The notes: a model not told the origin generated them from the sequence alone. DNA of 32,000 bases from Nonlabens ponticola (GCF_003966335.1 NZ_CP034549.1:300001-332000), one strand, 5' to 3'; positions 846-30,185 are shown, counted from the stretch's first letter. Numbers and translations are program-made.

Positions 846-1462
846 TGCGTTGGTATCCAGATCGCATACCTGACTGGATATCATCGTTATTTCCTAATTA
901 CACTTGGCACAAAAACAGGTCAACTAAAACAATTTATTTGACCTTTGACGACGGGCCAACGCCTATAGCCACTAGTTATGTGCTAGAATTGCTAGACAAG
1001 TTTAATTTCAAGGCTACATTCTTTCTTATAGGTGATCGAGCACAGCGATATCCTGAATTAAAACAGCAATTAATAGATCATGGACACTCCATTGGGAATC
1101 ATACTCACAATCACCTGAACGCTTGGAAAACTTCAAATAACGAGTATCTAGATAATGTAGCTTTCGCGAAAGCTAACACCAGTAATAAATTATTCAGACC
1201 GCCGTATGGTCGGGTCAGACCAGGCATCACTAACGCCTTGATTAAGGAAGACTATGAGATTGTTTTGTGGGATGTATTGTCAGGCGATTTTGATGTTTCA
1301 AGAACAGCAGAAAGCTGTCTGAAAAATTTAATGAATGCCACTCGCAATGGTAGTATTATCGTTTTTCATGATAGTGATAAAAGCTATGAGAAATTGCAAA
1401 AAATCTTACCTAATTACTTCCGTTGGCTGAGAAATCGAGGATATAAAAGCGCTAGGCTTTAA
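845..1462 (+). CDS. Polysaccharide deacetylase family protein (NodB homology / CE4)
   Basis: CE4 motifs are present: LTFDDGP, HSIGNHTHNH and RPPYG. The ATG overlaps the upstream stop by 1 nt, which suggests translational coupling. Confidence 0.85.
   Translation: MRWYPDRIPDWISSLFPNYTWHKNRSTKTIYLTFDDGPTPIATSYVLELLDKFNFKATFFLIGDRAQRYPELKQQLIDHGHSIGNHTHNHLNAWKTSNNEYLDNVAFAKANTSNKLFRPPYGRVRPGITNALIKEDYEIVLWDVLSGDFDVSRTAESCLKNLMNATRNGSIIVFHDSDKSYEKLQKILPNYFRWLRNRGYKSARL
1158..1175. repeat. Copy 1 of the iterated palindrome, extended to 18 bp (TAGCTTTCGCGAAAGCTA), inside the CE4 deacetylase CDS
   Basis: Read directly from the sequence. The perfect 14-mer core is at 1160-1173 and is translated as V-AFAKA-N. 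Confidence 0.95.
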
Positions 1463-1463
1463 T

Positions 1464-1763
1464 CTAGCGTGCAAACTGATTGAGCAAGGAAATAAGTGAA
1501 CTACCATCTTGTAAACCGCTTTGACGCCATTTCATCTCACCATTTTTATAGATGATGATGGTAGGAAGGCCTTTGATACGCAATGCTTCAGACAACTGCG
1601 GGTTTTTATCTACATTAATCTTTATGATACGTGCCTTATCACCTACAGCGGCTGCCACATCTCTAAGCACTGGATGCATGCTAGTAGAATCGTCGTTCCA
1701 GTCTGTAAAAAAGTTGAATAATACAGGTACGTTTGTACTTATCAATTCACCAAATTTTGACAT
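1464..1763 (-). CDS. Thioredoxin-fold protein lacking the CxxC active site
   Basis: The 99-aa protein aligns by eye with classical Trx (..FFTDW-NDDS-..., KINVDKNPQL, GLPT cis-Pro loop, YKNGE). WCGPC is replaced by WNDDS and the protein contains no Cys at all. Confidence 0.8.
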   Translation of the reverse strand: MSKFGELISTNVPVLFNFFTDWNDDSTSMHPVLRDVAAAVGDKARIIKINVDKNPQLSEALRIKGLPTIIIYKNGEMKWRQSGLQDGSSLISLLNQFAR

Positions 1764-1854
1764 AATCGCCTTTTATTAGTAAAGTAAATGTAAGCAATAT
1801 CATCGATTTCGGTAATTCACATTATTGAATGCGCCGTTGATTGATCATTATTGA

Positions 1855-3078
1855 TTAACCTCGCTTTTTAAGTTTTATAACTGTAATTTCTGGCCAGATA
1901 CCAGCACGTCCAGAATAACCCAAAAAACCAAAACCACGATTCACATTCAAGAACCTGCCATATTCTTTATAGATACCAGCCCACTTTTTATACACAAACC
2001 AGGCAGGACTTAGTTTGATCCAGCCAGGAATCTCGATGCCCATTTGCATACCGTGCGTGTGACCGCTTAGGGTCAAGTGAAAATTAGTATCGTTTTCTTT
2101 GACCTGCGCATCCCAATGCGTTGGATCATGAGAAAGTAACACCTTGAAATCTTCATTTTGCAGTCCTTGTGATGCTTTTTCTAGATCACCATATTTTGGG
2201 AAACGGCCACCACCCCAATTTTGTACACCAACGATCTTTAAAGAATCTGCACCTCTATCGATGGATACATTCTCATCAAGCAATAATCGCCAGCCCATGT
2301 TCTTTTGAATGTCAAAAAGCTCTTGCAGGTTAGCTTGTTTTGCCTCTGGTGTTTCCCAGCTTGCATAATCGCCATAATCATGATTACCCAGTACAGAAAA
2401 GACACCATCGCTGGCAGTAAGCCTTGAGAAAATATCTTCCCAGCCGTACAACTCACTACTCACATTATTTACTAGATCACCTGTAAACAAAATGACGTCT
2501 GAAGCTTGTTTGTTGACTAGGTCGATCGCATATTTCACTTCTTCCTTATCATCAAAGGAACCCACATGAATATCACTAATCTGCGTGATTGTATAACCAT
2601 CAAATTGCTCAGGTAAATCATCAAAGCTAAGCTCATAATTGCGCACTTGATAATCATATTTCCCCTTAAATGCACCGTAAAAAATCGCTCCAAAAGGCAG
2701 TGCGGCAACACCCAATCCTAACATGGATAGAAACTTGCGCCTGCTAGGTAAAAAGCTACTGTTGCTAGCTGCATCTAAAGTCACGCGATTCCAGATTCCC
2801 GCAATCAGCCTATAAATGTCCTCACCTAGCATGAACAGGACAAAAACAACTTGTGCGACAAATACAGCGAGGAATAAAGTAATAGCAAAATCACGCGCAC
2901 TAGACGCTTGCGATCTATCTGGATTCAGGTAAAATTGCAATACGATATTCAGGATCACGAGAATGGTTGCCGCTAGATAAATCCATTTTGCCCAGTGACC
3001 ACGTGATAGCGTACGCACCAATTGAAATGCATAAAACTGAAAGCCAATAACGATTAGTAAGGTGATTATCCATCTCAT
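1855..3078 (-). CDS. Membrane-anchored metallophosphoesterase (calcineurin-like)
   Basis: The N-terminus has about 4 hydrophobic helices. Metallophosphoesterase motifs follow: SDIHVG, TGDLVN, GNHD and SGHTHG. Confidence 0.85.
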   Translation of the reverse strand: MRWIITLLIVIGFQFYAFQLVRTLSRGHWAKWIYLAATILVILNIVLQFYLNPDRSQASSARDFAITLFLAVFVAQVVFVLFMLGEDIYRLIAGIWNRVTLDAASNSSFLPSRRKFLSMLGLGVAALPFGAIFYGAFKGKYDYQVRNYELSFDDLPEQFDGYTITQISDIHVGSFDDKEEVKYAIDLVNKQASDVILFTGDLVNNVSSELYGWEDIFSRLTASDGVFSVLGNHDYGDYASWETPEAKQANLQELFDIQKNMGWRLLLDENVSIDRGADSLKIVGVQNWGGGRFPKYGDLEKASQGLQNEDFKVLLSHDPTHWDAQVKENDTNFHLTLSGHTHGMQMGIEIPGWIKLSPAWFVYKKWAGIYKEYGRFLNVNRGFGFLGYSGRAGIWPEITVIKLKKRG

Positions 3079-3189
3079 GCTGCGAAACTACTATCTACAA
3101 GCATGTTAACACACCAGCTGGTTCTTAAGGTTGTCTTAAATACAACTGGCATACTTGTTATAGACGATCAAGTGTGGTACGCCATTTGA

Positions 3190-4068
3190 ATGACCATTAG
3201 AAAAAGATATATGCGTTTTTTCAGCACCATAATAGGTATCCTAGCCTTAACTATCACCTCATGCACTGCCGCAGACGATGCCGTATCAACAGCACCTATC
3301 ACCAACTTACCAGCCGCTATTGAGAAAAATGCAAGCTATGGTAATCATACACAACAAACCTATGATTTGTACCTACCTGCAAACCGTAAAGCAAATACCA
3401 CACAAACTATCGTACTTCTGCATGGTGGTAGTTGGGTAAGCGGTGATAAATCAAGCATGGACTTTATGGTACAGCGCATTCAATCCAGCTTACCCAATCA
3501 TGCCATCATTAATATGAACTATCGACTCGCAAATGGCAGTACGGTAAAGGCATTCCCTAATCAGTTAGAAGATATTGAATTGATGCTTGACACACTCCAG
3601 GAGCAAAGTGGCAGCTGGCAAATAAGTGATAAGACCACCTTGTTGGGTGTGAGCGCTGGCGCCCATCTATCGTTATTATATGCTGCAGCTTATGATGAGA
3701 GTGATCAGGTAAATAAGGTGATAAACATCGTAGGTCCTACAGATTTTACCGATGATTTCTATGCTGGTAATCCCAGTTTTCAATTTATGTTCAATGCGTT
3801 GGTCGATGTGCCTGCTTTAAACACTAATGATCCAGTGACTGCGGTAAGCCCAGCGCAACGTATCACCACCAGCATGCCTGCCGTGTTTAATTTCTACGGT
3901 AATCAAGATCGTCTTGTCGCCTTGAGCCAGCTAGAATCTCTGGAAAAAGCTCTTGACCAGTTTGCAATTCCCTATGAAAGCACCATTTATGATGGTGGTC
4001 ATGCTAACTGGAACGAGAGCCAGTTGCAGGATCTTGAGGACAAGATTAAAAGCTTTTTAGGTGGTTAG
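3190..4068 (+). CDS. Alpha/beta hydrolase (esterase/lipase type), probably a lipoprotein
   Basis: The signal peptide ends LTITSC (lipobox-like). An HGGSW oxyanion motif and a GVSAG nucleophile elbow are present, with a C-terminal GGHANW region. Confidence 0.8.
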   Translation: MTIRKRYMRFFSTIIGILALTITSCTAADDAVSTAPITNLPAAIEKNASYGNHTQQTYDLYLPANRKANTTQTIVLLHGGSWVSGDKSSMDFMVQRIQSSLPNHAIINMNYRLANGSTVKAFPNQLEDIELMLDTLQEQSGSWQISDKTTLLGVSAGAHLSLLYAAAYDESDQVNKVINIVGPTDFTDDFYAGNPSFQFMFNALVDVPALNTNDPVTAVSPAQRITTSMPAVFNFYGNQDRLVALSQLESLEKALDQFAIPYESTIYDGGHANWNESQLQDLEDKIKSFLGG

Positions 4069-4086: not shown

Positions 4087-4100
4087 GCTTTCGCGAAAGC
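4087..4100. repeat. Copy 2 of the iterated palindrome GCTTTCGCGAAAGC, intergenic
   Basis: Perfect 14-mer. Its left flank TAATGATTAC (4077-4086) is identical to the flank of the copy at 20293-20302. Confidence 0.95.
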
Positions 4101-4204: not shown

Positions 4205-7045
4205 TTGACAAACGACGGCACTGACGATAAACGACTGTTTTTACTGGATGCATATGCACTTATTTTTAGAGGATATTATGCGCTGATCAAGAATCCACGC
4301 ATCAATTCGCAAGGCATGGATACCAGCGCAATTATGGGTTTTACCAATTCGCTGTTTGACGTTATACGCCGTGAAAAGCCAGAATATCTGGCAGTAGCTT
4401 TTGACAAGGAAGGCAGCGCAGAGCGTACGGAGCTTTATGAAGATTATAAGGCCAATCGCGACGAGACACCTGAAGCCATACGCATCGCGATTCCTTACAT
4501 TCAACGCATTCTCAAGGCGATGCACATTCCTTATATCATGGAAGCCGGTATCGAGGCAGATGACCTGATAGGAACGCTGTCAAAACAAGCCGAAAAGGAA
4601 GGCTTTACCGTTTATATGGTGACACCAGACAAGGATTATGCTCAGCTGGTTTCAGAAAATATCTTTATGTATCGTCCAGCGCGCATGGGTAATGGTATTG
4701 AGATATGGGGCATTCCTGAAGTACAGAAACGCTTTGAAGTCGAGCGACCAGAGCAAGTCATTGATTATCTAGGTATGATGGGCGACGCTAGCGACAATAT
4801 TCCTGGACTGCCTGGCGTAGGCGATAAAACAGCCAAAAAATATCTCAAGGAATACGGCAGTATGGAAGCTTTGCTAGAAAACGCCGTAAATATTAAAGGA
4901 AAAATAGGTGAGAAAATCCGCGACAATGCAGATCTGGGCAGGCTTTCAAAACAACTCGCGACCATCAAGCTGGATTGCGACGTGACCTTCAATGCCAAAA
5001 ACTACACTCTGGACGATCCAGATGTCGAGGCCGTCCACGAGATCTTTGACGAGCTGGAATTCCGCAGGGCGAAGGAAACGCTGGCCAAGATTTTTTCAAA
5101 AGAATTAGTTACTGCTGGCTCAAGCGGTGTTGGTAGCTCTTCATCGAGTTCAGATACGGCTGGTACTGGACAATTTTCACTATTTGACGCTCCAGGATCA
5201 GGAACCAAGGCAGAGGCTCAAGCTACCGGCCGCCAGACTCTTGCCACGACAGATCACCTATATCAAGTCGTTCAAGAAGGCATGGGAACCAAGCTATTCT
5301 TGCAAAAACTGATGCAACAAACAAGTGTCTGTTTTGATACCGAGACTACTGGTCTGGATCCACTGGCTGCACAACTTGTTGGGATTGCCTTTTGTTGGGA
5401 GAAAGGCAAAGGATATTATCTGCCTTTTCCAGAAGATCGTGATGCTGCGCAAGCCATTGTTGACCAGCTTAAATCGTTCTTTGAGAGTACCGACATTGAG
5501 AAGATTGGGCAAAATTTAAAATACGACATCAAGGTGCTGGACAAGTATGGCGTTGATGTAAAGGGACCGCTTTTTGATACAATGCTAGCCCATTATTTGA
5601 TCAATCCAGACATGCGTCACAACATGGACATTCTGGCCGAAACCTACCTGAACTACACGCCACAATCCATCACAGAGTTGATTGGTAAAAAAGGCAAAAA
5701 CCAGAAATCCATGCGCGATGTAGACATCGAGCAGGTCAAGGAATATGCTGTCGAGGATGCCGACATCACTTACCAACTCAAACAACACTTTGCACCGGAG
5801 CTAAAGGCGGCTGGTACCGATAAACTTTTTGCAGATATCGAGATACCACTCTTGCAGGTACTGGCAGATATGGAGATCGAGGGCATAAACCTAGATGAGG
5901 ATTATTTGGGCACGCTTTCGCGAAAGCTAACTGAAGACATCGCATCATTACAGGAAAACATCTATAAGGAAGCAGGCGAAGAGTTTAACATCGGGTCGCC
6001 AAAACAACTGGGCGAGATTTTATTTGGGAAGATGAAGCTGGTAGATAAGCCTAAAAAGACCAAAACAGGACAATATTCTACCGCTGAAGATGTGCTGAGC
6101 TACCTAGCAAAAGACCATCAAATCATTGCTGACGTCCTCGAATACCGCGGACTTACTAAGCTACAGAGTACTTATGTAGACGCCTTGCCTAATCAGGTAA
6201 ATCCTGAAACGCAGCGCATCCATACCAATTACATGCAAACGGTTGCCGCTACAGGTCGTTTGAGTTCCACAGATCCCAACCTGCAAAATATCCCGATCAG
6301 AACCGAGCGTGGTCGCCAGGTACGCAAGGCATTTATACCTCGTGATGAAAATTACACGCTACTCGCTGCCGACTACTCGCAGATTGAATTACGCATTATC
6401 GCTGCCTTGAGTGAAGAAGATAACATGATGGAAGCCTTTAAAAGCGGTGCAGACATTCACGCATCTACCGCTGCCAAAGTTTTTGACGTGGCGATAGAAG
6501 ATGTGACGCGCGAGCAGCGCAGTAATGCCAAAACGGTCAACTTTGGGATTATCTATGGCGTATCGGCTTTTGGGTTGAGTAATCAAACAGATCTCGACCG
6601 CACAGAGGCCAAAGAACTCATCGATACATACTATAAAACATATCCAAAGCTGCGTGCCTACATGGATGATCAAGTAGCTTTTGCACGCGAGAATGGTTAT
6701 GTAGAAACCGTGCTGGGTCGTCGTCGCTACCTAAAAGACATCAATAGTTCCAATGGTGTAGTGCGAGGCGCAGCCGAGCGTAATGCTGTCAACGCGCCTA
6801 TCCAAGGAAGCGCGGCAGACATTATCAAAATTGCCATGATCAACATTCACAATAAGTTTGAGGAGCTCAACTGCAAGTCAAAAATGCTACTGCAGGTGCA
6901 TGATGAACTCGTTTTTGACATTCACAACGATGAGCTGGATGACATGAGAAAACTCATCCAGGAAGAAATGGAAAACGCCTATAAAATGAGCGTACCGTTA
7001 GATGTTGAAGTAGGAATGGGCGAGAATTGGTTGGAGGCTCATTGA
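4205..7045 (+). CDS. polA: DNA polymerase I (5'-nuclease, 3'-5' exonuclease and polymerase domains)
   Basis: The N-terminus reads KRLFLLDAYALIFRGYYA. Exo motifs are FDTETTGLD, NLKYD and YAVEDAD. Polymerase motifs are DYSQIELRIIA, RSNAKTVNFGIIYG and QVHDEL. The only in-frame start after the upstream stop (4181) is TTG at 4205. Confidence 0.95.
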   Translation: MTNDGTDDKRLFLLDAYALIFRGYYALIKNPRINSQGMDTSAIMGFTNSLFDVIRREKPEYLAVAFDKEGSAERTELYEDYKANRDETPEAIRIAIPYIQRILKAMHIPYIMEAGIEADDLIGTLSKQAEKEGFTVYMVTPDKDYAQLVSENIFMYRPARMGNGIEIWGIPEVQKRFEVERPEQVIDYLGMMGDASDNIPGLPGVGDKTAKKYLKEYGSMEALLENAVNIKGKIGEKIRDNADLGRLSKQLATIKLDCDVTFNAKNYTLDDPDVEAVHEIFDELEFRRAKETLAKIFSKELVTAGSSGVGSSSSSSDTAGTGQFSLFDAPGSGTKAEAQATGRQTLATTDHLYQVVQEGMGTKLFLQKLMQQTSVCFDTETTGLDPLAAQLVGIAFCWEKGKGYYLPFPEDRDAAQAIVDQLKSFFESTDIEKIGQNLKYDIKVLDKYGVDVKGPLFDTMLAHYLINPDMRHNMDILAETYLNYTPQSITELIGKKGKNQKSMRDVDIEQVKEYAVEDADITYQLKQHFAPELKAAGTDKLFADIEIPLLQVLADMEIEGINLDEDYLGTLSRKLTEDIASLQENIYKEAGEEFNIGSPKQLGEILFGKMKLVDKPKKTKTGQYSTAEDVLSYLAKDHQIIADVLEYRGLTKLQSTYVDALPNQVNPETQRIHTNYMQTVAATGRLSSTDPNLQNIPIRTERGRQVRKAFIPRDENYTLLAADYSQIELRIIAALSEEDNMMEAFKSGADIHASTAAKVFDVAIEDVTREQRSNAKTVNFGIIYGVSAFGLSNQTDLDRTEAKELIDTYYKTYPKLRAYMDDQVAFARENGYVETVLGRRRYLKDINSSNGVVRGAAERNAVNAPIQGSAADIIKIAMINIHNKFEELNCKSKMLLQVHDELVFDIHNDELDDMRKLIQEEMENAYKMSVPLDVEVGMGENWLEAH
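5914..5927. repeat. Copy 3 of the iterated palindrome, inside polA
   Basis: Perfect 14-mer, read as T-LSRKL-T in the polA frame. Confidence 0.95.
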
Positions 7046-9979: not shown

Positions 9980-11056
9980 TCAATTTTGAATAGATAAAAT
10001 TCTAAGTAGTTTACTTACATCATCGATGGTATTAAAATGAGCAAAACTCACTCTAATACCTTCGCCACGCAGTGAACACAAAATGTTGTTTGACCTAAGG
10101 CGCTGCATCAACTCTACGTCACCCTTTATATTAATTATGGATGAGTGCGTTTTTCTTTTCGCTAGCTGTGAATTGATCATTCCTGTATCCAATAGATGTT
10201 GCCTTGCATGTGAAGCTAGCTTTGCCTGTTGCAATTCAATATTTCTCAAGCCGTAATCAGTCGCAAACTGAATGGCGTGTTGCAACCCACCATAAGCGAG
10301 CAAATCTTGATGACCTGGCTCAAAATGTCCTATAAAACTACCGCGATCCTTACTGCCTTGGACACTATTAAAACCAATATGTGCTGGCTTGATGCGCTCT
10401 ATCGCGTCCTCCTTAAAAATCATGTAAGCATTCCCATCGCCTGCATGTAACCATTTATAGCAACTTGCCGCTAGGATATCTATTTTGCTTTCGCGAAAGC
10501 TAAATTCAAAAGCGCCCGTAAACTGCGTACCGTCTGCAATCACAATCATATCAGGATATTGCACCTTGAGCTCGTCGATAAAATCAAGATCAATCTTGAT
10601 ACCAGTAATGTATTGAACCAGCGACAAAGCCAGCACATCTGGACGATGCTTGCGACAGGCGTCTGCAATGTGATCTTCTACCTTATGATCTAGCGTCGCA
10701 TAAACGCAATCGAAACCTCGCGCCTGCACTGGCCAATTGATCGATGGATAATCACCGTCAACGAGCAGGAATTTCAACGATTTATCCATGCCGTCCAGTA
10801 ACGTATTGAATCCTATGGAAAAGTTGGGAATCAGCGCGGTCAAATGCTCGTCTGCATCCAGGAACTGGGCTACTGTGGATCGCACATTGTCCATAAACCC
10901 AGCTGGATCGCTCCAGACTTCGCTACCTTCTATCGTCATGCGATGCAATAAATCGTTTTTGTACGCCTTTAAACCCGTACTCACCAGGCCGTGCGCCGCA
11001 GTATTGAGGTAAGTGTAGTTGTCCAGGACTGGATATAGCTCTTTTAATTTATGCAT
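9980..11056 (-). CDS. Aminotransferase class V-fold PLP-dependent enzyme (cysteine desulfurase/epimerase-like)
   Basis: The start reads YLNTAAHG. ADGTQ and SCYKW (candidate PLP lysine) motifs are present, and the length is about 358 aa. Confidence 0.75.
   Translation of the reverse strand: MHKLKELYPVLDNYTYLNTAAHGLVSTGLKAYKNDLLHRMTIEGSEVWSDPAGFMDNVRSTVAQFLDADEHLTALIPNFSIGFNTLLDGMDKSLKFLLVDGDYPSINWPVQARGFDCVYATLDHKVEDHIADACRKHRPDVLALSLVQYITGIKIDLDFIDELKVQYPDMIVIADGTQFTGAFEFSFRESKIDILAASCYKWLHAGDGNAYMIFKEDAIERIKPAHIGFNSVQGSKDRGSFIGHFEPGHQDLLAYGGLQHAIQFATDYGLRNIELQQAKLASHARQHLLDTGMINSQLAKRKTHSSIINIKGDVELMQRLRSNNILCSLRGEGIRVSFAHFNTIDDVSKLLRILSIQN
10487..10500. repeat. Copy 4 of the iterated palindrome, inside the aminotransferase CDS
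   Basis: Perfect 14-mer, read on the minus strand as F-SFRES-K. Confidence 0.95.
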
Positions 11057-11086
11057 TTGATAAGGTAAATAATCTGTGGCGTTGGG

Positions 11087-11094
11087 TACATTTG
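11087..11094 (+). promoter_or_regulatory. Candidate Bacteroidota -7 box (TACATTTG, matching TAnnTTTG)
   Basis: It matches the known Bacteroidota sigma-A -7 consensus and lies 19 nt upstream of ATG 11113. It overlaps the TTG at 11092, which argues against that longer start. Confidence 0.35.
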
Positions 11095-11112
11095 ATTATA
11101 AAAGTAACTCAA

Positions 11113-12015
11113 ATGTTTAGCAACAAAAAAAAGCAAACACCTGGTATAGATCCAGATCAAAAAGAGATGATTGACAATGCCCGATTGCGTATCAAGCAAA
11201 AACGTGGGCTATTCTCTCATTTTATAGTATTCCTGGTAGGGTCTGTAGGGTTGATAGTGGTAAGCCAATTTTTCATAAAAAGTGAGATACCGCAATTACT
11301 GGGTATTGATTGGTGGATCTGGATCATTTTTGCATGGGCGCTTATTTTGCTGTATCACTTATTTAAAGTTTACGTGACCCAAAAACTTCTAGGACCAGAC
11401 TGGGAAAAACGACAGTATGACAAACTAGTAAGCAAGCAACAGGATCGCATCAATAAATTACAAGGCAAAGTAGAGAAAGATTATCCACTGCCTGATGCCA
11501 AGGTCGTCATCACACCCACAAAAAACTACCGAGAAGTCACCATGATTGCCGCGGCAGGCAACGATGACGGTTTGGGAAAAGATGGGCAGCTTGTATGGCA
11601 TTTACCTGATGATTTTAAACGCTTCAAGAGACTTACTACCGGGCATCATATTATCATGGGTCGCAAGACCTTTGACAGCTTTGATAAGCCGTTGCCTAAT
11701 CGCACGCACATCGTACTTACCAGAGATAAAAGCTACACCAGTGATCATGCCATCATTTGCCATGACATGGATACCGCGCTGGCAGCAGCTAGTGATGATC
11801 CACAACCATTTATCATAGGCGGCGGCGAGATCTACAAATTGGGCTTGCCCTATGCAGACAAGATCGAACTCACCAGAGTACACGGCTCTTTCACTACCGA
11901 CGCTCATTTTCCCGAAATTGATGAGTCCAAATGGAAACTGGTCAATAGCCTACACCACCCAGCAGACGATAAGCACAAGTACAGCTTTGACTATGAGACT
12001 TGGGTAAGGAAGTAG
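11113..12015 (+). CDS. folA: In-frame fusion of a 2TM membrane module with dihydrofolate reductase. The DHFR part could alternatively start at ATG 11542.
   Basis: The N-terminus has two hydrophobic helices (FSHFIVFLVGSVGLIVV, WWIWIIFAWALILLYHLF) followed by a charged linker. The C-terminus carries DHFR motifs: MIAAAGNDDGLGKDGQLVWHLPDDFKRFKRLTTGHHIIMGRKTFDSF and PFIIGGGEIY. There is no stop codon between the two parts. Confidence 0.75.
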   Translation: MFSNKKKQTPGIDPDQKEMIDNARLRIKQKRGLFSHFIVFLVGSVGLIVVSQFFIKSEIPQLLGIDWWIWIIFAWALILLYHLFKVYVTQKLLGPDWEKRQYDKLVSKQQDRINKLQGKVEKDYPLPDAKVVITPTKNYREVTMIAAAGNDDGLGKDGQLVWHLPDDFKRFKRLTTGHHIIMGRKTFDSFDKPLPNRTHIVLTRDKSYTSDHAIICHDMDTALAAASDDPQPFIIGGGEIYKLGLPYADKIELTRVHGSFTTDAHFPEIDESKWKLVNSLHHPADDKHKYSFDYETWVRK

Positions 12016-12016
12016 G

Positions 12017-12047
12017 TGACAGTTGACAGTTGACAGTTGACAGTTGA
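12017..12047. repeat. Perfect heptamer tandem repeat, (TGACAGT)x4 plus TGA
   Basis: Read directly from the sequence. It starts 2 nt after the folA stop and creates four phased TTGACA hexamers upstream of fabD. Confidence 0.95.
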
Positions 12048-12100
12048 ATGATAAATTAAAAATTCGGATTAGCTTAAATTCGCACTTACAAACAAATCAC

Positions 12101-12982: not shown

Positions 12983-13033
12983 AAGTTGCCTAAAGAGATC
13001 CGAGATGGTAAAAGATTTATTTCATGGTCTAAC

Positions 13034-13615
13034 TTATTGCCTTACAAAATTTAGACCTGTATTTACTGGAAAATAAGGCTCTATTGCGCCATTAGAACAT
13101 TCATCACCCGTTATCCACAGACTTTCTAAAAGCATAAGCTCTAGATAAAGTGTTTTTCTATTGGTAAGCTGTTCGGTTTCAAGAAGAATTCCCCATTCAT
13201 AATTTGCTTCGCACTCACGCCGATTATAAAAAAAAGAATAAGAACCATCTGGAAATAAGCTGTAGCCTATTCCAGAAAGAACTGCATTACCAGTTTGTCG
13301 TGTATCAATTATCAGATTATCATTTTCATCTCTAATCCTATAATCTAAAATCAGTGCATCAATTTCGTCAAAGATTCCATTATTGATTGTGTTTTTTGAA
13401 ATAAAAACGTCAAATTTTTTCCGGCTATGCACAGCAGACCAATGACCTACAAAAACATCGAGGCTGTTATTACTATCCACGATTTTTTGAATATTCGCAG
13501 GAACAAGTCGATTTGAATCTGATAATATTTCACCGTAATCTTCGACAGTTAGCGTTTGAGAAAAACTAATTGTAATAACAATAAACAAAAAAGCGAATGC
13601 TAACGTCATCTTCAT
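13034..13615 (-). CDS. Secreted hypothetical protein, paralog A (ends ...FVRQ)
   Basis: It has a signal peptide. Segments FVGHWSAV..FDVFISK and IDTRQTG resemble the neighbouring ORF, and the region is AT-rich. Confidence 0.6.
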   Translation of the reverse strand: MKMTLAFAFLFIVITISFSQTLTVEDYGEILSDSNRLVPANIQKIVDSNNSLDVFVGHWSAVHSRKKFDVFISKNTINNGIFDEIDALILDYRIRDENDNLIIDTRQTGNAVLSGIGYSLFPDGSYSFFYNRRECEANYEWGILLETEQLTNRKTLYLELMLLESLWITGDECSNGAIEPYFPVNTGLNFVRQ

Positions 13616-15801: not shown

Positions 15802-15805
15802 AATA

Positions 15806-18565
15806 TTATTTGTTGGTATTAAATACGTCTTCAATTATTCTTGCCTGTCTTGCCTTTGATCTGGTTGCACTACCAGATGCTGGCGCGGCGTACATGTTTC
15901 TGGAGCATACGCGCCAGTTTCTTGTTTCTTCCATGTGCAACAATAGGTGTGCATAAGCTCCCATATTGCGCGGCTCTTCTTGAGCCCATACGATATCCTT
16001 GCTACCGTATTTCTTGATGGTCTTCTTGATATCTGCCACTGGTAGCGGGAACAATTGTTCTACTCTTACTAGAGCAACGTCGTTACGATCATGTTCTTCT
16101 CTATATTCCAGTAGGTCATAGTAGAATTTTCCACTGGTGAATACTAGGGTTTTAGCTTTCGCGAAAGCGTCACCATCAACATCAATCACCTCTTTAAAAC
16201 TACCTTTTGTAAACTCCTCAATCGGGCTCACTGCACGTGGCGACCTCAATAACGATTTAGGGGTAAACACGACTAGTGGCTTGCGGTAATTGACCAACAT
16301 CTGGCGTCTCAACAGGTGAAACATGTTGGCTGGCGTGGTACAATTTGCCATAAACATATTGTCGCGTGCACACAGTTGTAAGTAACGCTCCATGCGGGCA
16401 CTACTATGTTCTGCGCCTTGACCTTCATAACCGTGTGGCAACAGCATCACGAGACCATTCTGGTTTTTCCATTTGTCCTCACCAGCACTGATGTACTGGT
16501 CAATCATGATTTGCGCACCGTTTGAGAAATCACCAAATTGTGCTTCCCATATCGTGAGCGTTTCTGGCTGTGCCATCGCATAACCGTACTCAAAACCTAC
16601 CACCGCATATTCTGACAGGTGTGAGTTATAAATCTCCATCTTTCCATCTGCATCCAGGTGGTTGTGTAGGATAAACTCGTTCTCGTGATTCTCTGACTTG
16701 ACCACCGCATGACGGTGAGAGAACGTTCCGCGCTCTACATCTTGTCCACTCATGCGCACATTGTAGCCATCCTGCATCAAGCTACCGTAGGCAAGATGCT
16801 CGCCCATGGCCCAATCCATCTTGTTGTCATCAAACATTTGCTGTCTAGACTCCACAATTTTCTTGATCTTGCGTATGAAGTTTTGATCTTCTGGCAGTTG
16901 GGAAATTACCTTAGTAATCTCCTGTAATTTTTTCTTTTCAACGCCCGTTTTGACTTTTTTCATCATGGCGTCCTCGGTAGCGGTCTCATAACCATCCCAT
17001 TCATCCTGCATGAACGGTGTGATGATGGTATTTTCCATCTGTCGTGAGGTAGCTAGCTCGTCTTCAAGACGGTCTTTGTAGACTTTCTCAAGCTCTTTTA
17101 CCTTGCCTTTATCAATGACATTTTCCTTGAGCAACTTGTCGGCATAAATATCACGCGAGTTTTTATGCTTGCTAATTGCTTTATACAATTGTGGTTGGGT
17201 AAATCTAGGCTCATCACCTTCATTATGACCGTACTTTCTATATCCTAATAGGTCAATAAACACATCCTTGCCAAATTCCATACGGTAATCCAGCGCAAAG
17301 TTCATCGCGTGTACTACAGCCTCGGCATCGTCTGCATTGACGTGAAGTACTGGCGATAACGTAACCTTAGCAATATCTGTGGAATAAGTAGATGATCGAC
17401 CATCCAGATAGTTGGTAGTAAAACCTACCTGGTTATTCACTACTAGGTGAATGGTACCAGCAGTTTTGTAGGCCTCGAGTTGTTCCATTTGAATCACCTC
17501 ATAAACGATACCTTGACCTGCAATAGCAGCATCACCGTGCAATACGATAGGCAAGACCTTGCTGGCATCATCTGGTGTGTGCATGTCTTGTTTGGCTCTG
17601 GTAATACCTTCAACAACAGCACCTACTGTTTCTAGGTGCGATGGATTGGGAACAATATTAATATTAATGTTGTTGCCGTTATCTGTCTTGCGCTTACTAG
17701 TATAACCCAAGTGATATTTTACATCACCATCAAAAATGTCCTGCTCATAATCCTTACCATCAAACTCTGAAAAAATGTCTTTTACTGGCTTACCAAAAAT
17801 ATTAGTCAATACATTCAATCGGCCACGGTGAGCCATTCCTAACACAAACTGGTCAACACCTTTATCGGCAGCATTCTCGATGAGAGAATCCAGTGCTGGA
17901 ATAAGTGACTCATTACCTTCTAGTGAGAAACGCTTTTGACCTACATATTTGGTATGCAGGAATGATTCAAAAGAAACGGCCTCGTTAAGCTTCTTGAGAA
18001 TCTGTACTTTTTGATCTTTATTAAAGTCTGGATGATTATTGTTGCGGTGCAACCAACTCTGGATCCACTTTACCTGTTCTGGTGAGCGCACATACATGTA
18101 CTCTACACCTATACTCTCACAATACACCTGCTTGAGGTGCGATATAATATTTTTAAGGCTGGTTTTACCGAGTCCTACCAGCTCGCCGCTTTCAAACTCT
18201 GTCGATAGATCTGCATCGCTCAATCCAAAATTTTCCAGATCCAACGTAGGCTGATATTGACGACGCTTGCGCACTGGATTGGTTTGTGTGAACAAATGGC
18301 CGCGTGTGCGGTAGCCATCGATCAATTGTACTACTTGAAACTCCTTACGCATCTGGTCTGGCACGCCTACAGATTGCTGGTCGCCAGCATTATCTCGATA
18401 AACTACCTGCGTCTCGCCATCGCCAGCAGACTCCATCCCAAAATCAAAGCCTTGAAAAAAGGCACGCCACGACGGCTCGACCTGATCTGGATTTATTAAA
18501 TATTCATCGTAAAGTTGTGCAAAGTAGGCAGTGTGTGCTGCGTTCAGAAAAGAAAATCTATCCAT
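15806..18565 (-). CDS. sucA: 2-oxoglutarate dehydrogenase E1 component
   Basis: The 919-aa protein starts [53 protein letters not shown] and the C-terminal E1 signature region are present. Its stop lies 4 nt before the sucB start. Confidence 0.95.
16155..16168. repeat. Copy 5 of the iterated palindrome, inside sucA
   Basis: Perfect 14-mer, read on the minus strand as D-AFAKA-K. Confidence 0.95.
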
Positions 18566-19237: not shown

Positions 19238-20170
19238 ATGCAAATGAATAGAATATTAATCTTCCTCGTGATAGGAATCACTTTTGCTTCTTGTAAACAA
19301 GGTAATGAAGAAAAAGCAGGACAAACCACACGAGAGACTGAATTCAAAAAAGTTGTTCGCGATGATTATCAGCTTTACAAACCAGCCAGTGAAATCAAGG
19401 CTGTTTTAATCCTTTTTGGCGGCTACCCAGAAGATGCAGAAGGCATTAAAAGAGAATTCCCGATTCTTGAGGATGCCAGAAATAACAGCATCGCAGTGAT
19501 AATGTCCAACTACAACCAAAAGTTGTGGCTAGAGGAAAATGAAAAACGTCAACTCGCAACCAGTCTGCAGGATATTTTTGAAGAACATCATTTACCTAGT
19601 GAAAATGTAGTTGTTGGAGGTTATTCTAGCGGCGGCGTGGTGAGCCTATTGATCAGTGATTTTATTATAGGACACAAACAATTTTATATCGACCCAAAAG
19701 GAGTGTTCATCGTTGACTCGCCTATTGATCTAGAGGTATTATATAGAACTGCCGAGAAGAATATTGAAAGAGACTTCTCTGAACCTTCCATTCAAGAAAG
19801 CACCTGGCTATTAAAAGAACTAGGAAGCGGATTAGGTAATCCAGATGAACATATTGAAAATTATGAGCAAAGTTCTATTTACACCTATAGCACTGGTAAT
19901 ATTTCTAATTTGAAGAAATTAAAAAAGACCAAAATCAGACTTTATACGGAGCCAGATACCCTTTGGTGGCAAGAAAATAGAATGGCCTCTTACGATGAGA
20001 CCAATGCATTTTATATCCAGGATCTGCACAGGATTCTCACCCAACAAGGCTATAACAAAGTAGAATACATTCCAACTGTCGATAAAGGATATAGAGCAAA
20101 TGGAATGAGGCATCCACATAGCTGGTCTATTGTCGATAAGGCCGACTTGATAGACTGGATTCTAAATTGA
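19238..20170 (+). CDS. Lipoprotein with an alpha/beta-hydrolase-like fold (putative esterase)
   Basis: It has a lipobox (ITFASC), a GGYSSGG nucleophile-elbow-like motif and a late His (RHPHSW). Confidence 0.55.
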   Translation: MQMNRILIFLVIGITFASCKQGNEEKAGQTTRETEFKKVVRDDYQLYKPASEIKAVLILFGGYPEDAEGIKREFPILEDARNNSIAVIMSNYNQKLWLEENEKRQLATSLQDIFEEHHLPSENVVVGGYSSGGVVSLLISDFIIGHKQFYIDPKGVFIVDSPIDLEVLYRTAEKNIERDFSEPSIQESTWLLKELGSGLGNPDEHIENYEQSSIYTYSTGNISNLKKLKKTKIRLYTEPDTLWWQENRMASYDETNAFYIQDLHRILTQQGYNKVEYIPTVDKGYRANGMRHPHSWSIVDKADLIDWILN

Positions 20171-20298
20171 ACATATAATGTGTGGCCTGTGGATAGGATG
20201 GCTATGTAACTAGTTAGCCTTACGCCTGTACAAATCATATCCTGTATTGAAGTTCTGGACCGTACTTCAACGTGTTTCTTGCAATGGGTTTTTAATGA

Positions 20299-20320
20299 TT
20301 ACGCTTTCGCGAAAGCGTAA
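20299..20320. repeat. Copy 6 of the iterated palindrome, the longest form: a 22-bp perfect palindrome TTACGCTTTCGCGAAAGCGTAA, intergenic
   Basis: Read directly from the sequence. The core is at 20303-20316. The left flank TAATGATTAC (20293-20302) is shared with copy 2. Confidence 0.95.
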
Positions 20321-20486
20321 CCCAAAAAAACTTAATTCTTACATAAACTCTTAAAGCCTTTACAACGGCATCATAAATAATGATTGCAATTAACAGTTTT
20401 TAAGCCAGATGAACTTATGTTAATACAGTATTAGTAAACCTAAGTATCTATCATCATAGATTGTCATCAAAATCAAAATAACAACT

Positions 20487-21545
20487 ATGAAAAAGATATT
20501 TTTAAGCATGCTTGCCCTTTCAATGGCGATCACAGCATGTAATGACAGTAAGAAAAAAGACAACGCGTCAAATGATACCGAGTATAATGAAGACGCTACT
20601 GGCGATTCAACATCTGAAGATATGGATACTCAAGAAATGAGTCGTGAGGATGCAGAGCGTATGAGTAAAGATATGCGTGATAATGTCGAGGTAGATGACG
20701 AGGACAATGTGACGATAAAAAGTTTTGCCGAGTATGGTGAATTGCAAACGCAGGTAAGAAACTTATCTACTAAGCCTGATTTGCGCGAGGACATGGTAGG
20801 TATGGAAGCATATAATGCCTTTGAAAAATTTGTGGCTAATATGCCTGCATATTTAAAGACAAATGCTGTCATGAAAGAGGTACAAGACACACGTGTAGCC
20901 ATGGATCGCTTTAAGGCAGATCTTGAGGATGAAAGCGTGTCAAAAGAAACGATGAAGAGACACCTCATGAAAGTAGAGACTGCAGTTGAAGATCTTAATG
21001 ACGAGATTGCTAGTGTACGTCAAGGTCTTGACGCGAGTGATATTGATTATACGGCGTATAATGATTTTGCAACCAATGTAAATTATGGTGATAACGGCCT
21101 AATCTACATCACAGGATTTGATGCTTTTAATCAAGCACAAAGAGATTACATCTTGATGAGAGATGGTGATATGGATGAGAAGATGAAGTATGAGACGTCA
21201 CTTAAAAAAGATTTCAAAGCACTAGCGCAAAACATTCCATCTTACCTACTAGTAGATGATGTAGAAGATGAAATTGAAGATGTACAGGAAGAAATTGCAT
21301 ACTATGAGAAGTACAAAAATGACAAATCAGTAGATGCAGAGCAACAATTAGAAAACCTTGAAGAAATCGAGGAAGCTATGTATGATCTTAACAGAGAGCT
21401 TGTGAAAGCAAGAAAAAAATATGTAGATAACCGCAAGGATGCCATTGAGGAATTCATGGAAGAATTTAATGACGATGATGGCCGCAGCATGGAAGCACGC
21501 TTAAAAGATGCTACCGAAGAATATAATGAGGAGATTGAGGACTAA
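20487..21545 (+). CDS. Highly acidic lipoprotein with an internal duplication (hypothetical)
   Basis: It has a lipobox (AITACN) and is very D/E-rich. Two related modules centre on ..FVANMPAYL.. and ..LAQNIPSYL.., about 131 residues apart. Confidence 0.6.
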   Translation: MKKIFLSMLALSMAITACNDSKKKDNASNDTEYNEDATGDSTSEDMDTQEMSREDAERMSKDMRDNVEVDDEDNVTIKSFAEYGELQTQVRNLSTKPDLREDMVGMEAYNAFEKFVANMPAYLKTNAVMKEVQDTRVAMDRFKADLEDESVSKETMKRHLMKVETAVEDLNDEIASVRQGLDASDIDYTAYNDFATNVNYGDNGLIYITGFDAFNQAQRDYILMRDGDMDEKMKYETSLKKDFKALAQNIPSYLLVDDVEDEIEDVQEEIAYYEKYKNDKSVDAEQQLENLEEIEEAMYDLNRELVKARKKYVDNRKDAIEEFMEEFNDDDGRSMEARLKDATEEYNEEIED

Positions 21546-22996: not shown

Positions 22997-23611
22997 ATGG
23001 AAGTCAAAGAACGCATACTAGAAGAATCCATGGATCTGTTTCTCACGCTGGGATTCAAGAGTGTTACCATGGACGAGATTGCCTCGCGATTGGGTATGAG
23101 CAAGAAGACCTTGTACACCCATTATCGTACTAAGGGTTCTCTGGTGGATGCAGCATCCGTTAATTTTTGTGAGCATGTATGCAACGGCGTGGACGACATT
23201 AGCGCGTCAGAAAGTGCCAATCCCATCGAGGAACTTTATGATGTCAAAAAGTTTGTCATGCAGCAGTTGCGCGGTGACAATACCTCACCCGTTTACCAAC
23301 TCAAAAAATATTATCCAGAGGTACACAGAAAAGTCGAACTCATGCAGTTTGACCACATGGACAAATGCATCAAACGCAATGTAGAGCGCGGCATTGAACA
23401 AGGATTTTATCGCGACAATATTGATGCGGCCTTTGTGGCGCGCATGTACTTTGTAGGCATTCAAGGCATCAAGAACATCAGCATTTTCCCTGCTGAGGAT
23501 TTCCCAGTGAATGACCTCTACGATCAATATCTAGAGTACCACTTGCGCGGCATCGTGACACCAGCTGGCCGTAAAATATTAAATGAACTAACCGACACAA
23601 ACCACGAGTAA
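22997..23611 (+). CDS. TetR/AcrR family transcriptional regulator
   Basis: The N-terminal HTH reads ILEESMDLFLTLGFKSVTMDEIASRLGMSKKTLYTHY. Its stop overlaps the TolC start (TAATG). Confidence 0.9.
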   Translation: MEVKERILEESMDLFLTLGFKSVTMDEIASRLGMSKKTLYTHYRTKGSLVDAASVNFCEHVCNGVDDISASESANPIEELYDVKKFVMQQLRGDNTSPVYQLKKYYPEVHRKVELMQFDHMDKCIKRNVERGIEQGFYRDNIDAAFVARMYFVGIQGIKNISIFPAEDFPVNDLYDQYLEYHLRGIVTPAGRKILNELTDTNHE

Positions 23612-24996
23612 TGAGAAGTACAATTATAACGGTGATGATTTTGTTTGGTTACGCTTTCGCGAAAGCGCAATCCACCACAGACACTACTGCACCGCAATCC
23701 TACAGCTTTACCCTAGAAGAGGCGATCAATTATGCGCTGGAGAATAATTATCAGGCTATTAATGCCAAAAGGGATATCGCTAAAGCGCTGAAGCAAAAGT
23801 GGGAAACAACATCGACCGGATTACCGCAAATCAATGGCGAGGCTGGCTATAATTACAATATCAAGATTCCTCAAACAGCCTTACCTGCACAAATTATTGA
23901 TCCAGATGCACAGCCAGGCACTTTTGTCGCGGTACCATTTGCTCCACGTCAAAGTGCTAATCTCACTGCAACACTTACGCAACTCATTTTTGACGGTTCT
24001 TATATCGTGGCACTTGAGGCATCACAGACTTTTCTGGATTTTAGCGAGAATGCCAACAATAAGACAAAACTAGAGGTGCGCAAAGGCGTCATCAATGCCT
24101 ACGGCGGCGTATTGCTGGCTCAAGAAAATGTGGATATTCTATCTAAGAATCTAGAGAACCTACAGGAAAACCTCAACGAGACTGAAAAGATTTTTGAAAA
24201 CGGTCTCGCCGAAGAAGAAGATGTAGAGCAATTACAAATTACAGCACTGCAATTACAAAACCAACTTAACAGCGCACAGCGACAGGTAGAGATTGCCATG
24301 GACATGTTTCAGCTAGCGCTAGGCATCGACCTTGCGGCAGATGTTGCGTTGAGCGAGGACCTTGAAAGTCTTGCTGTAAAAACCATCGATCTGGCCTTGA
24401 CTGGTCAAAACCTGGACATGGAACAAGCAGTAGATTACCAGATCGCCTATAATTTTACTGAACAACGCAGGCTGGAATACAAGTTGGAACGTGCTAAGGC
24501 GCTGCCTAGAGTAAGCGGTTTTGTGAATTATGGTACACAGGCGTTTGACGAGGATTTTGTCTTTTTTGACAGCAGTACGCCATGGTTCCAGCAATCTACT
24601 GCTGGTTTAAGTATTCAAGTACCTATTTTTAGTTCGCTAGGTCGCACCGCTCGCACCCAACGTGCAAAGATTGCCTACGATCAGGCTCTTACCGACTTTG
24701 AGCGCACCCAACAAGAGATCAAACTCAATTATGAGAGTGCACAAAATCAATATCAACTGGCCATTGACACCTATTTGACTAACAAGAAAAACCTTGCCCT
24801 TGCAGAGCGCGTTGAGAACAAAAACCAAATAAAATTTCAAGAAGGTATTGCCAGCAGTTTTGAATTGCGACAGGCGCAAACACAACTGTATGCCGCACAA
24901 GGCGATTACTTGAACAGCATGTTTCAAGTAATCACCAATAAGGCAGCACTAGAAACCATATTGAATACACCAGAATATATTATCACAAGAGACTAA
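23611..24996 (+). CDS. TolC family outer-membrane efflux protein
   Basis: It has a signal peptide, a LEEAINYALENNYQ start and a two-repeat coiled architecture. Its operon context with MFP and RND genes also fits. Confidence 0.88.
   Translation: MRSTIITVMILFGYAFAKAQSTTDTTAPQSYSFTLEEAINYALENNYQAINAKRDIAKALKQKWETTSTGLPQINGEAGYNYNIKIPQTALPAQIIDPDAQPGTFVAVPFAPRQSANLTATLTQLIFDGSYIVALEASQTFLDFSENANNKTKLEVRKGVINAYGGVLLAQENVDILSKNLENLQENLNETEKIFENGLAEEEDVEQLQITALQLQNQLNSAQRQVEIAMDMFQLALGIDLAADVALSEDLESLAVKTIDLALTGQNLDMEQAVDYQIAYNFTEQRRLEYKLERAKALPRVSGFVNYGTQAFDEDFVFFDSSTPWFQQSTAGLSIQVPIFSSLGRTARTQRAKIAYDQALTDFERTQQEIKLNYESAQNQYQLAIDTYLTNKKNLALAERVENKNQIKFQEGIASSFELRQAQTQLYAAQGDYLNSMFQVITNKAALETILNTPEYIITRD
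23652..23667. repeat. Copy 7 of the iterated palindrome (16-bp CGCTTTCGCGAAAGCG), inside the TolC signal peptide codons
   Basis: The core is at 23653-23666, read as Y-AFAKA-Q. This is the predicted AxA signal-peptidase site. Confidence 0.95.
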
Positions 24997-26193: not shown

Positions 26194-26196
26194 GCA

Positions 26197-29706: not shown

Positions 29707-29727
29707 TACTGTATTGACTTTAAAAAT

Positions 29728-29759
29728 AAAAATGCCTCGCAATCACGAGGCATTTTTTT
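29728..29759. terminator. Bidirectional rho-independent terminator between convergent genes
   Basis: The sequence reads AAAA-ATGCCTCG / CAATCA / CGAGGCAT-TTTTTT, with an A-run on one side and a T-run on the other. Confidence 0.8.
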
Positions 29760-29763
29760 ATGA

Positions 29764-30093
29764 TTAACTGCCAGCAACAGGAGATCCAAATATACCAACA
29801 GCAAGCTCCACCCAAACAAGAGCAAGAAGTATGACTACCACAAAAATGAACACAAATGAGCGGTAGCCTTTTCTTCCTAACTTATTACGTATGATTTGGA
29901 TGGTGACGGAACCTGTAAAAAACAATAGAAAAGCCACCACAAAGTCCATGAGCGACCAATTTACCTCATCTGTAAATTGCATAGCGATGAATGGTACTAA
30001 CAGTATGGCGAGACAGGATAATACTATGGTTATGAACTGTCGTCCTGTAATAAAACTTGGTGTTGTTTTTCGTGGGCTCACTTGCAGTAACAA
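29764..30093 (-). CDS. Small integral membrane protein (about 3 TM helices), hypothetical
   Basis: This 109-aa ORF has three hydrophobic segments. I recognise no motif in it. Confidence 0.5.
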   Translation of the reverse strand: MLLQVSPRKTTPSFITGRQFITIVLSCLAILLVPFIAMQFTDEVNWSLMDFVVAFLLFFTGSVTIQIIRNKLGRKGYRSFVFIFVVVILLALVWVELAVGIFGSPVAGS

Positions 30094-30144
30094 ATTAAAA
30101 AACTAGCGATCCAGGTAATTTGTTTTTAGGCCGTTTAGAATTTA

Positions 30145-30185
30145 GCTTTCGCGCCTGCCTATCGGCGAGGCAGGAAAGCGTAATC
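30145..30185. repeat. Interrupted copy 8 of the palindrome: GCTTTCGCG + nested hairpin (CCTGCC-TATCGGCGA-GGCAGG) + AAAGCGTAATC
   Basis: Read directly from the sequence. The outer arms and the GTAATC flank (reverse complement GATTAC) match the intergenic copies. It is intergenic, between the PiT gene and the small membrane protein gene. Confidence 0.85.

Follow-up and report, generated by a model that had tools for sequence, protein, structure and literature searches.

Why should one perfect 14-bp palindrome, GCTTTCGCGAAAGC, recur throughout a single stretch of a flavobacterial chromosome? The stretch in question comprises 32,000 nucleotides (nt) of Nonlabens ponticola (GCF_003966335.1 NZ_CP034549.1:300001-332000) and is referred to in its entirety as the window. 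A first-pass annotation of this DNA had listed seven perfect copies of the palindrome and had ruled out chance as their origin. All seven were located (Table 1), which corresponds to a density of one per 4.6 kb, and no further copies with one or two mismatches were encountered when the whole 32 kb was scanned. Only ~7e-5 exact copies are expected from base composition (0.21^8 x 0.29^6 x 32000), and dinucleotide-preserving shuffles (n = 100) gave a mean of 0.14 matches at two mismatches or fewer, with none of the 100 reaching seven. Our tentative answer is that the motif is a clade-specific tag for self-DNA, which would be read in duplex form by a symmetric protein and maintained via DNA uptake or recombination.

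The motif is widely iterated in relatives of N. ponticola. An exact-motif scan of one genome per species, covering 185,579 species, returned at least 120 matching 8-kb blocks. Among the matches listed, about 80 of the 120 blocks belong to Dokdonia, Nonlabens and unnamed Flavobacteriaceae, many of them with two to three copies per 8 kb, and one complete Dokdonia chromosome has listed blocks at 0.88, 1.38, 2.15 and 2.82 Mb. The other listed matches are single, mostly of high G+C content and chance-like, or represent a duplicated gene. For example, the matches at L005 6322 and L022 3905 (Bryobacterales contig, high G+C) belong to one genome and lie in an identical duplicated sequence; they do not represent a second carrier lineage. 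A second sample, unbiased as to the motif, consisted of 80 metagenomic loci chosen via polA (68-84% PolA identity). Twelve of the 80 carry 29 copies in 193 kb, approximately one per 6.7 kb, and the other 68 flavobacterial loci (1.1 Mb) contain none. The overall density in carriers is about one copy per 5-7 kb, and the frequency outside the window does not fall to near expectation; 0.90 Mb of carrier DNA contains 183 copies (204 per Mb). A neighbour-joining tree of PolA separates the carriers into at least four clusters, with L253 and L275/L284 nested among motif-free relatives; this single-gene tree points, provisionally, to repeated gain or loss of motif carriage.

No comparable iterated palindromic 10-mer that might represent a "dialect" of the motif was found in the 68 non-carrier loci, and 11-mers repeated within a locus revealed nothing of comparable role in any of the 81 polA loci (window included). 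The 12-mer TGGAATGTTTAA occurs twice, ~1.6 kb apart, in L309 (13922 and 15522), in an arrangement repeated in L306, L316, L302 and L259. One of its copies immediately follows a conserved hairpin, which itself lies upstream of a gene, and this word could be a leader or regulatory mimic within a conserved operon.

Comparison of occupied and empty orthologous sites shows that the motif is created by point substitutions, without insertions or deletions (indels). At the polA position of the window copy at 5914, 78 orthologues align codon for codon, free of gaps, and read S-L-S-(E/G/K)-(D/A)-L; the sequence S-L-S-R-K-L together with a perfect motif is present only in the window and in L275/L284. At a second polA site L242/243 encode NRFRESN where their closest relatives encode KKFEEMN, again with no indel, and all other orthologues are motif-free. 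L253 has motif-free sister genomes with a local identity of 81-87% and shares the peptide RLSRKL with them, five to six synonymous changes having converted GTCTATCCAGAAAGTT to GGCTTTCGCGAAAGCT. Filled and empty sites are equal in length in all three cases. At the counterpart of position 5914 the non-carriers L261/L262 have CTTTCGAAAGCG, which equals the motif without its central CG, and the Leu-Ser stretch at this polA position shows a predisposition to the motif. A further position, L253 6573, is intergenic and reads GCTTTCGCGAAAGC, aligned with other palindromes of equal length in L271 (TTAGTTTTAACTAA) and L281 (TCGCGTACGCGA), the surrounding flanks being ~87% identical. From the alignment, it appears that the motif has replaced a structure-conserving hairpin here in one of the lineages.

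These observations bear on the view, taken in the first-pass annotation, that the copies constitute a genome-wide iterated signal and not a repetitive extragenic palindromic (REP) element or a miniature inverted-repeat transposable element (MITE), a view strengthened by their lineage-wide occurrence, predominantly genic location and substitution origin. In common with REPs, bacterial interspersed mosaic elements (BIMEs) and MITEs, the motif is a short dispersed palindromic repeat with a conserved tetranucleotide beside its stem, and the TTAC that often precedes it superficially recalls both REP tetranucleotide-plus-hairpin units and the IS608 target site. REPs lie outside genes, are imperfect and frequently paired, and spread by insertion, whereas the motif is perfect, solitary, substitution-made and mostly intragenic, with about two thirds of copies in genes, where every reading frame is represented. 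Different copies have unrelated flanks and do not form part of a longer mobile sequence. Furthermore, no transposase, REP-associated tyrosine transposase (RAYT) or methyltransferase domain is found among the proteins of the 32-kb window, in agreement with the initial remark that no transposase or RAYT-like gene lies alongside the copies. It is highly unlikely that a miniature mobile element (of the REP/RAYT, MITE or IS200/IS605-target type) spreads the motif by insertion, and for the sites examined REPs and MITEs are rejected on the grounds of absent indels, unrelated flanks and mostly intragenic location.

Mapping by frame and by gene arrangement, a check suggested at the outset, shows that the motif acts as a signal at the level of DNA, in genes as well as in spacers. 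When 154 copies were classified by reading, 63 encode AFAKA, 26 (R)FRES and 28 (T)LSRK(R), and 37 lie outside open reading frames (ORFs) of at least 90 codons. Approximately 117 of the 154 are thus within ORFs, unlike the extragenic REPs; some of the short-ORF assignments are probably non-coding, which places the intergenic share at 24-38%. Per base, intergenic copies are roughly three-fold enriched, although the majority of copies are still genic, and they occupy tandem (36), divergent (13) and convergent (5) spacers. In the window itself five copies are located within long ORFs and two in spacers, and the host genes are ordinary flavobacterial housekeeping genes, encoding a deacetylase, DNA polymerase I, an aminotransferase, 2-oxoglutarate dehydrogenase E1 and a TolC-like efflux protein.

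Table 1. Positions in the window of the perfect palindrome copies and of one possible disrupted copy, with their genetic context
Feature	Position	Location	Remarks
Perfect copy	1160..1173	Inside polysaccharide deacetylase gene (845-1462, +)	Peptide A-F-A-K-A
Perfect copy	4087..4100	Spacer, esterase gene (3190-4068) to polA (4205-7045)	Six relatives occupied at the same position
Perfect copy	5914..5927	Inside polA	Peptide L-S-R-K; substitutions from ancestral S-L-S-E/G-D/A-L
Perfect copy	10487..10500	Class-V aminotransferase gene (9980-11056, -)	Peptide F-R-E-S; kept in L239, L241 and L282
Perfect copy	16155..16168	2-oxoglutarate dehydrogenase E1 gene (15806-18565, -)	Peptide A-F-A-K-A
Perfect copy	20303..20316	Spacer of tandem genes 19238-20170 and 20487-21545	Full 22-bp form TTACGCTTTCGCGAAAGCGTAA
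Perfect copy	23653..23666	Signal-peptide region of TolC-like outer membrane efflux gene (23611-24996, +)	Peptide A-F-A-K-A
Possible disrupted copy	30145..30179		GCTTTCGCG + 21-nt hairpin CCTGCCTATCGGCGAGGCAGG + AAAGC, then GTAA

The same mapping bears on whether selection acts on a peptide of the AFAKA type, on an mRNA hairpin or on a transcription terminator. AFAKA suits signal-peptidase sites, and ~11 of the 63 frame-0 copies lie at signal-peptide ends; the 22-mer, with a folding energy of -7.3 kcal/mol, can form a 9-bp hairpin. Against this, three different peptides are encoded, other copies are intergenic and one copy was made by synonymous changes only. The hairpin of the 14-mer (-2.1 kcal/mol) is no better than that of shuffled sequences, its loop bases are as invariant as its stem, and the window has no match to any Rfam family. 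A terminator is further contradicted by the 13 copies in divergent promoter spacers as against only 5 in convergent ones. The frames, the synonymous creation, the weak hairpin, the types of spacer and the lack of an Rfam match together exclude a peptide motif, an RNA motif and a terminator, and a signal at either of these levels can scarcely be credited.

Once formed, the motif is kept far longer than the sequence around it. Motif 14-mers are identical between aligned carriers in 32% of cases, compared with 3.5% for all 14-mers (~9-fold). The 15-mer at the 4087 copy is an invariant island within a spacer alignment of 54% mean identity that spans two carrier clades, and the copy in the TolC-like gene (23653) is conserved in the genome block nearest to the window (L057, 72% identical) although the signal-peptide flanks have diverged and carry an indel. 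Orthologous positions across carriers showed 0 mismatches in 27 comparisons and 5-10 of 14 in 60, with almost none between. The mismatch spectrum, which includes the count of one-mismatch variants proposed in the first-pass annotation, is similarly steep: 0.90 Mb of carrier DNA holds 183 perfect copies and only 14, 19 and 37 at one, two and three mismatches, whereas the corresponding numbers in 1.11 Mb of non-carrier DNA are 0, 1, 9 and 50. Only the near-perfect classes are enriched in carriers, and background level is reached from three mismatches on. One-mismatch copies are suggested to be decaying copies, because they mostly retain the C and G that adjoin the core. We infer that sequences drifting to within ~2 mismatches are captured, driven to perfection and then held.

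A process of this kind need not be selective, and the word could in principle be a functionless by-product of biased repair or mutation, such as methylation-directed short-patch repair or quasi-palindrome template switching. This would suit the simultaneous divergence of new copies from their orthologous sequence at 5-10 of 14 positions, the replacement of a different palindrome at the intergenic position in L253, and the patchy distribution of carriers, which resembles that of an accessory repair gene. Such a bias would nevertheless act on any DNA and produce no avoidance between copies, and it explains neither the perfection of old sites whose flanks have diverged to 55-70% identity nor the change in flanks after the core. 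Near-matches with 3-5 mismatches are not enriched, and neither are orphan half-sites (38 per Mb in carriers compared with 53 per Mb in non-carriers); in the cases examined, another palindrome would result if the ancestral arm served as the template for switching; and outside the motif the inner TCGCGA and CGCG show neither avoidance nor enrichment. Taken together, a neutral origin is very improbable. The normal frequencies of TCGCGA and CGCG outside the motif and the lack of half-site enrichment also rule out restriction-site logic.

The conserved unit is longer than the 14-mer. A symmetric flank consensus, proposed initially from the window, is borne out on 153 copies of related genomes as TTaC-core-GtAA, with C at -1 and G at +14 present in 79% of copies, T at -3 in 69% and T at -4 in 61%. 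The true unit is therefore a 16-bp palindrome, CGCTTTCGCGAAAGCG, with weaker TT/AA shoulders. A mirror-symmetric bias continues for ~20 bp on either side of the core, the 5' flank being G/T-rich and poor in C (1-10% at most positions) and the 3' flank being the complement, and the extended symmetric footprint is ~55 bp. Within the flanks (-13 to -3 and +16 to +26) T peaks at -4, -7, -10 and -13, with A mirrored opposite, in a weak 3-nt periodicity; the T periodicity is seen in intergenic as well as coding copies (e.g. window 20290-20329) and thus is not a codon effect. The flank profile recurs separately in intergenic copies, in the gene-upstream halves of coding copies and in their reverse-complemented downstream halves, and since all three half-site classes share it, it is a property of the site and not of codon usage. 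The flanks of single copies have no complementarity or similarity beyond the column composition, and therefore do not extend the hairpin. Because the dyad is perfect, including the central CG/CG, and the fold is weak, a symmetric (dimeric) protein would seem to recognise the motif in duplex form.

A flank skew score averages +5.7 at motif sites and +1.1 at orthologous motif-less positions of non-carriers, a comparison made over only about eight independent sites; the copy at 16155, for example, scores 13 compared with 4.75 at its orthologous motif-less positions. The skew is thus not simply a context that preceded the motif. The flanks may have been shaped after the core, as suggested by a skew of ~0 at three young polA sites and of 5-13 at most of the conserved sites.

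Palindromes of 14-16 bp with TTTC...GAAA arms that can be genic and are read by dimers are also represented by parS and the Noc-binding site (NBS), and by matS and the SlmA-binding site (SBS). In the parS/NBS consensus TTTC is positioned at -6 to -3 from the dyad, and these sites are degenerate, number in the tens and are regionally confined. In contrast, the motif has TTTC at -5 to -2, a shift of one base, and is perfect, chromosome-wide and present at ~200 per Mb. A ParB/Noc site was dropped as a candidate on account of this one-base difference in register.

An interrupted copy had also been listed at 30145. Its sequence is as first described, and the site, 30145..30179, folds at -11.4 kcal/mol; its membership of the family is unproven. 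Split forms (GCTTTC-N(3-45)-GAAAGC) are equally common in motif-free genomes, with 4 in 1.12 Mb of non-carriers compared with 5 in 0.90 Mb of carriers, and for this reason the site is regarded as a possible member only. The 21-nt hairpin within it (30154-30174, CCTGCC-N9-GGCAGG) has one relative with three mismatches, at L046 5107 in a Dokdonia ponticola block, where the surrounding motif half-sites are absent.

The distribution of copies along the DNA is also unusual. The even spread first noticed in the window is confirmed by a coefficient of variation of gap length of 0.33 (p = 0.011). Gaps between neighbouring copies in related loci (n = 76) have a minimum length of 856 bp; random placement inside the same loci would put 15.3 of them under 800 bp and 26.9 under 1.5 kb, whereas 0 and 7 were observed (p < 0.0005). 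The copies repel one another. In addition, every carrier polA locus (13 of 13: the window, L239-L243, L253, L259, L274, L275, L282, L284 and L302) carries the motif within polA or a short distance upstream of it. The polA-associated copies occupy four different positions in different lineages, and in the low-density lineages L253 and L275 the polA-associated copy is among only one or two per 22 kb. This association may reflect a bias to genome-maintenance genes or a turnover in which one copy per segment is preserved.

Phage genomes differ in their content of the motif. Nonlabens phage P12024S (L319; 35.7 kb), which has no annotated integrase and carries its own ERF/YqaJ recombination genes, contains no copies even at two mismatches, where ~5 would be expected at host density if its host strain were a carrier. 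Two prophage-like IMG/VR contigs have three copies in 11-12 kb, some of them inside structural genes, which is a host-like density: L209, encoding an HNH endonuclease, portal, protease and major capsid protein, has copies at 191, 6705 and 11185, and L173, encoding a head protease, at 4210, 7851 and 10955. Residence in a carrier chromosome seems to matter.

Both the spacing and the phage data could be accounted for by a chromosome-organising function, in which a nucleoid or SMC-associated dimeric protein would bind regularly placed high-affinity palindromes that anchor or phase the chromosome, and ordinary purifying selection would maintain them. A perfect dyad with a weak hairpin would suit such a protein, the ~55-bp symmetric footprint suggests a large protein-DNA complex, and over-dispersed spacing together with strong site conservation is explained as well as by uptake, as are the absence of the motif from P12024S and its presence in prophage-like regions. 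Known architectural sites (parS, NBS, matS and SBS) are degenerate and number in the tens per genome, whereas hundreds of perfect 14-16-mers are found here. Moreover, carriers are scattered on the polA tree and have motif-free sisters, which would mean that an essential organiser had been gained or lost repeatedly, and no candidate protein has been identified. We consider this explanation unlikely, while noting that a nucleoid-structure function has been proposed for the cyanobacterial highly iterated palindrome HIP1 (Xu et al. 2018), the periodicity of which was read in this way (PMC5861425).

A self-protection or recombination signal resembling Chi would also have chromosomal copies in genes and spacers. 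In this explanation a helicase-nuclease of the RecBCD/AddAB type would meet the same word from either direction and switch to recombination, leaving a 3' tail that ends in the ~20-nt G/T-rich flank. At about 1 per 5-7 kb the motif has a density similar to that of Chi in E. coli, where Chi is linked to recombination as a chromosomal "self" signal; the ~20 nt lying 5' of the core on either strand, being G/T-rich, C-poor and weakly periodic in T, would form the end of the 3' tail; and P12024S, which lacks the motif, possesses its own recombination genes. In contrast, known Chi sequences are short (5-8 nt), asymmetric and co-oriented with replication, the information in a 16-bp palindrome is far above that needed for single-strand recognition, and repulsion between copies is not a known property of Chi. 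The interpretation of the flank in terms of RecA loading is inferential only. We regard a Chi-like role as distinctly unlikely, although HIP1 has been suggested to contribute in a Chi-like manner (bioRxiv 10.1101/2024.09.10.611283). The initial comparison of the motif with uptake sequences, HIP1 and Chi therefore stands for the first two, and is weakened for Chi, as a palindrome has no strand polarity and cannot be oriented.

The DNA uptake sequence (DUS) of the Neisseriaceae (GCCGTCTGAA) and the uptake signal sequence (USS) of the Pasteurellaceae (AAGTGCGGT plus AT-rich flanks) provide the closest parallels. Like these, the motif is a lineage-specific, hyper-abundant word that occurs about once per few kb, both in spacers and, irrespective of frame, in genes, where it leads to characteristic peptides; it originates by substitution, its positions are conserved between species, its flanks contribute more weakly, its spacing is more even than random, and the one Nonlabens phage inspected lacks it. 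We prefer a role in uptake to the other explanations because this behaviour agrees with that of DUS and USS in every respect that could be tested here. The differences are nonetheless considerable. The motif is a perfect 16-bp palindrome, whereas DUS and USS are asymmetric 9-12-mers; it belongs to the Bacteroidota, a phylum with no defined uptake signal; its flank skew is mirror-symmetric; its ratio of perfect to near-perfect copies is much steeper (13:1 for one mismatch); and its carriers are scattered on the polA tree.

With HIP1 (GCGATCGC) the motif shares a G+C-rich palindromic sequence with a CG-containing centre, massive over-representation within and between genes, conservation beyond background, non-random spacing and the lack of an evident role in peptides, RNA or expression. 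The debate over HIP1, in which nucleoid structure and transformation are the contending functions, is the same debate that arises for the motif. Unlike HIP1 and the alternative cyanobacterial HIPs, which are 8 bp in length, it extends to 14-16 bp, has another sequence and is found in another phylum, and its density is about 5-fold lower than that of HIP1. The HIP1 system is also defined by cognate orphan methyltransferases, and the 32-kb window encodes no methyltransferase domain. Where HIP1 displays a 10-90-kb periodicity (PMC5861425), the motif displays a short-range repulsion (>0.85 kb).

If the motif is a self-DNA tag, its reader most likely acts within the DNA uptake or transformation-recombination pathway. 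Fragments or alleles with a near-perfect tag would be taken up or recombined preferentially, so that matches within ~2 mismatches would be driven to perfection and retained, and a second tag close to an existing one would gain nothing, which would lead to even spacing. We propose that the repulsion is on the kilobase scale because one tag suffices per segment of the size taken up or recombined. The motif would then be the flavobacterial counterpart of the Neisseria DUS, the Pasteurellaceae USS and, following a recent proposal, the cyanobacterial HIP1. Riemerella columbina, a relative in the Flavobacteriaceae, is reported to be naturally competent and to prefer its own DNA, with no defined signal (PMC7965970). 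HIP1, the one other iterated palindrome with a long history of study, reportedly makes transformation of Synechococcus more efficient, and across cyanobacteria its abundance is reported to correlate with proteins that the authors term "type IV secretion system" and link to DNA uptake (bioRxiv 10.1101/2024.09.10.611283; 10.64898/2026.06.24.733823).

Several points weigh against this interpretation. Natural competence is not known from experiments in Dokdonia or Nonlabens, and the window, the part of the genome inspected, encodes neither a receptor nor a competence gene. A perfect 16-bp palindrome with a ~55-bp footprint is unprecedented among proven uptake signals, known DUS and USS being asymmetric and 9-12 bp in length. 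Conservation, even spacing and absence from P12024S are equally expected of a site for a chromosome-structuring protein; the prophage copies reveal an effect of residence and not of uptake. Finally, a spectrum with 13 perfect copies for each one-mismatch copy demands a threshold-like advantage, which is not known from uptake systems. With slightly less confidence, we suggest that Dokdonia, Nonlabens and allied marine Flavobacteriaceae may share a hitherto unrecognised, horizontally mobile self-recognition system in which a ~55-bp symmetric signal, formed by the 16-bp palindrome and its G/T-skewed arms, governs uptake of conspecific DNA, recombination or both.

Neither the 14-mer GCTTTCGCGAAAGC nor its inner 12-mer occurs in the searchable, non-paywalled literature, where we found no earlier description of the motif. 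The strings "palindrom", "competence" and "methyl" are absent from the text of the Nonlabens genome paper, and our literature search encountered no report of TCGCGA methylation in flavobacteria. Lineage-specific hyper-iterated DNA words are a known phenomenon, from which this motif differs in its length combined with a perfect dyad, its phylum, its extended footprint, its all-or-none spectrum and its scattered carriers. Good characterisation of genome-wide words so strongly iterated is confined to a few lineages (Neisseriaceae, Pasteurellaceae and cyanobacteria), each of which has taught something about the exchange of genes or the biology of the chromosome. A tag that is both long and perfectly palindromic, in marine flavobacteria of ecological importance, would point to unsuspected natural transformation or self-DNA discrimination in the Bacteroidota. 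If the uptake interpretation is true, the motif would be the first uptake-type signal in that phylum and the first long palindromic one, abundant marine flavobacteria would be naturally transformable, and DUS/USS and HIP1 would be joined in one class.

The motif also provides an independent system in which the function of HIP1-like palindromes can be probed, and sister lineages with and without it (L253 type and L271 type) represent a natural experiment for the reader protein. Its all-or-none pattern, the repulsion between copies and the stronger flanks at old than at young sites constrain models of signal evolution. In practical terms, constructs that include the tag might make Dokdonia and Nonlabens more tractable genetically, and the motif is a clean taxonomic or binning marker for metagenomes.

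The window has some further features. It encodes a GH16 enzyme sorted by the type IX secretion system (T9SS). The ORF at 11092-12015 (+) joins an N-terminal membrane domain with two transmembrane segments (2TM; amino acids 29-113) to a complete dihydrofolate reductase domain (amino acids 149-306), and represents either an unusual 2TM-dihydrofolate reductase fusion or a mis-called TTG start. Two neighbouring small secreted proteins are encoded on the minus strand at 13034-14337, a stretch of 36% G+C that falls in the longest internal motif-free gap (10500-16155). The first (13034-13615) has no Pfam match and the second (13723-14337) is assigned by Pfam to DUF6705; this stretch may be DNA of more recent acquisition.

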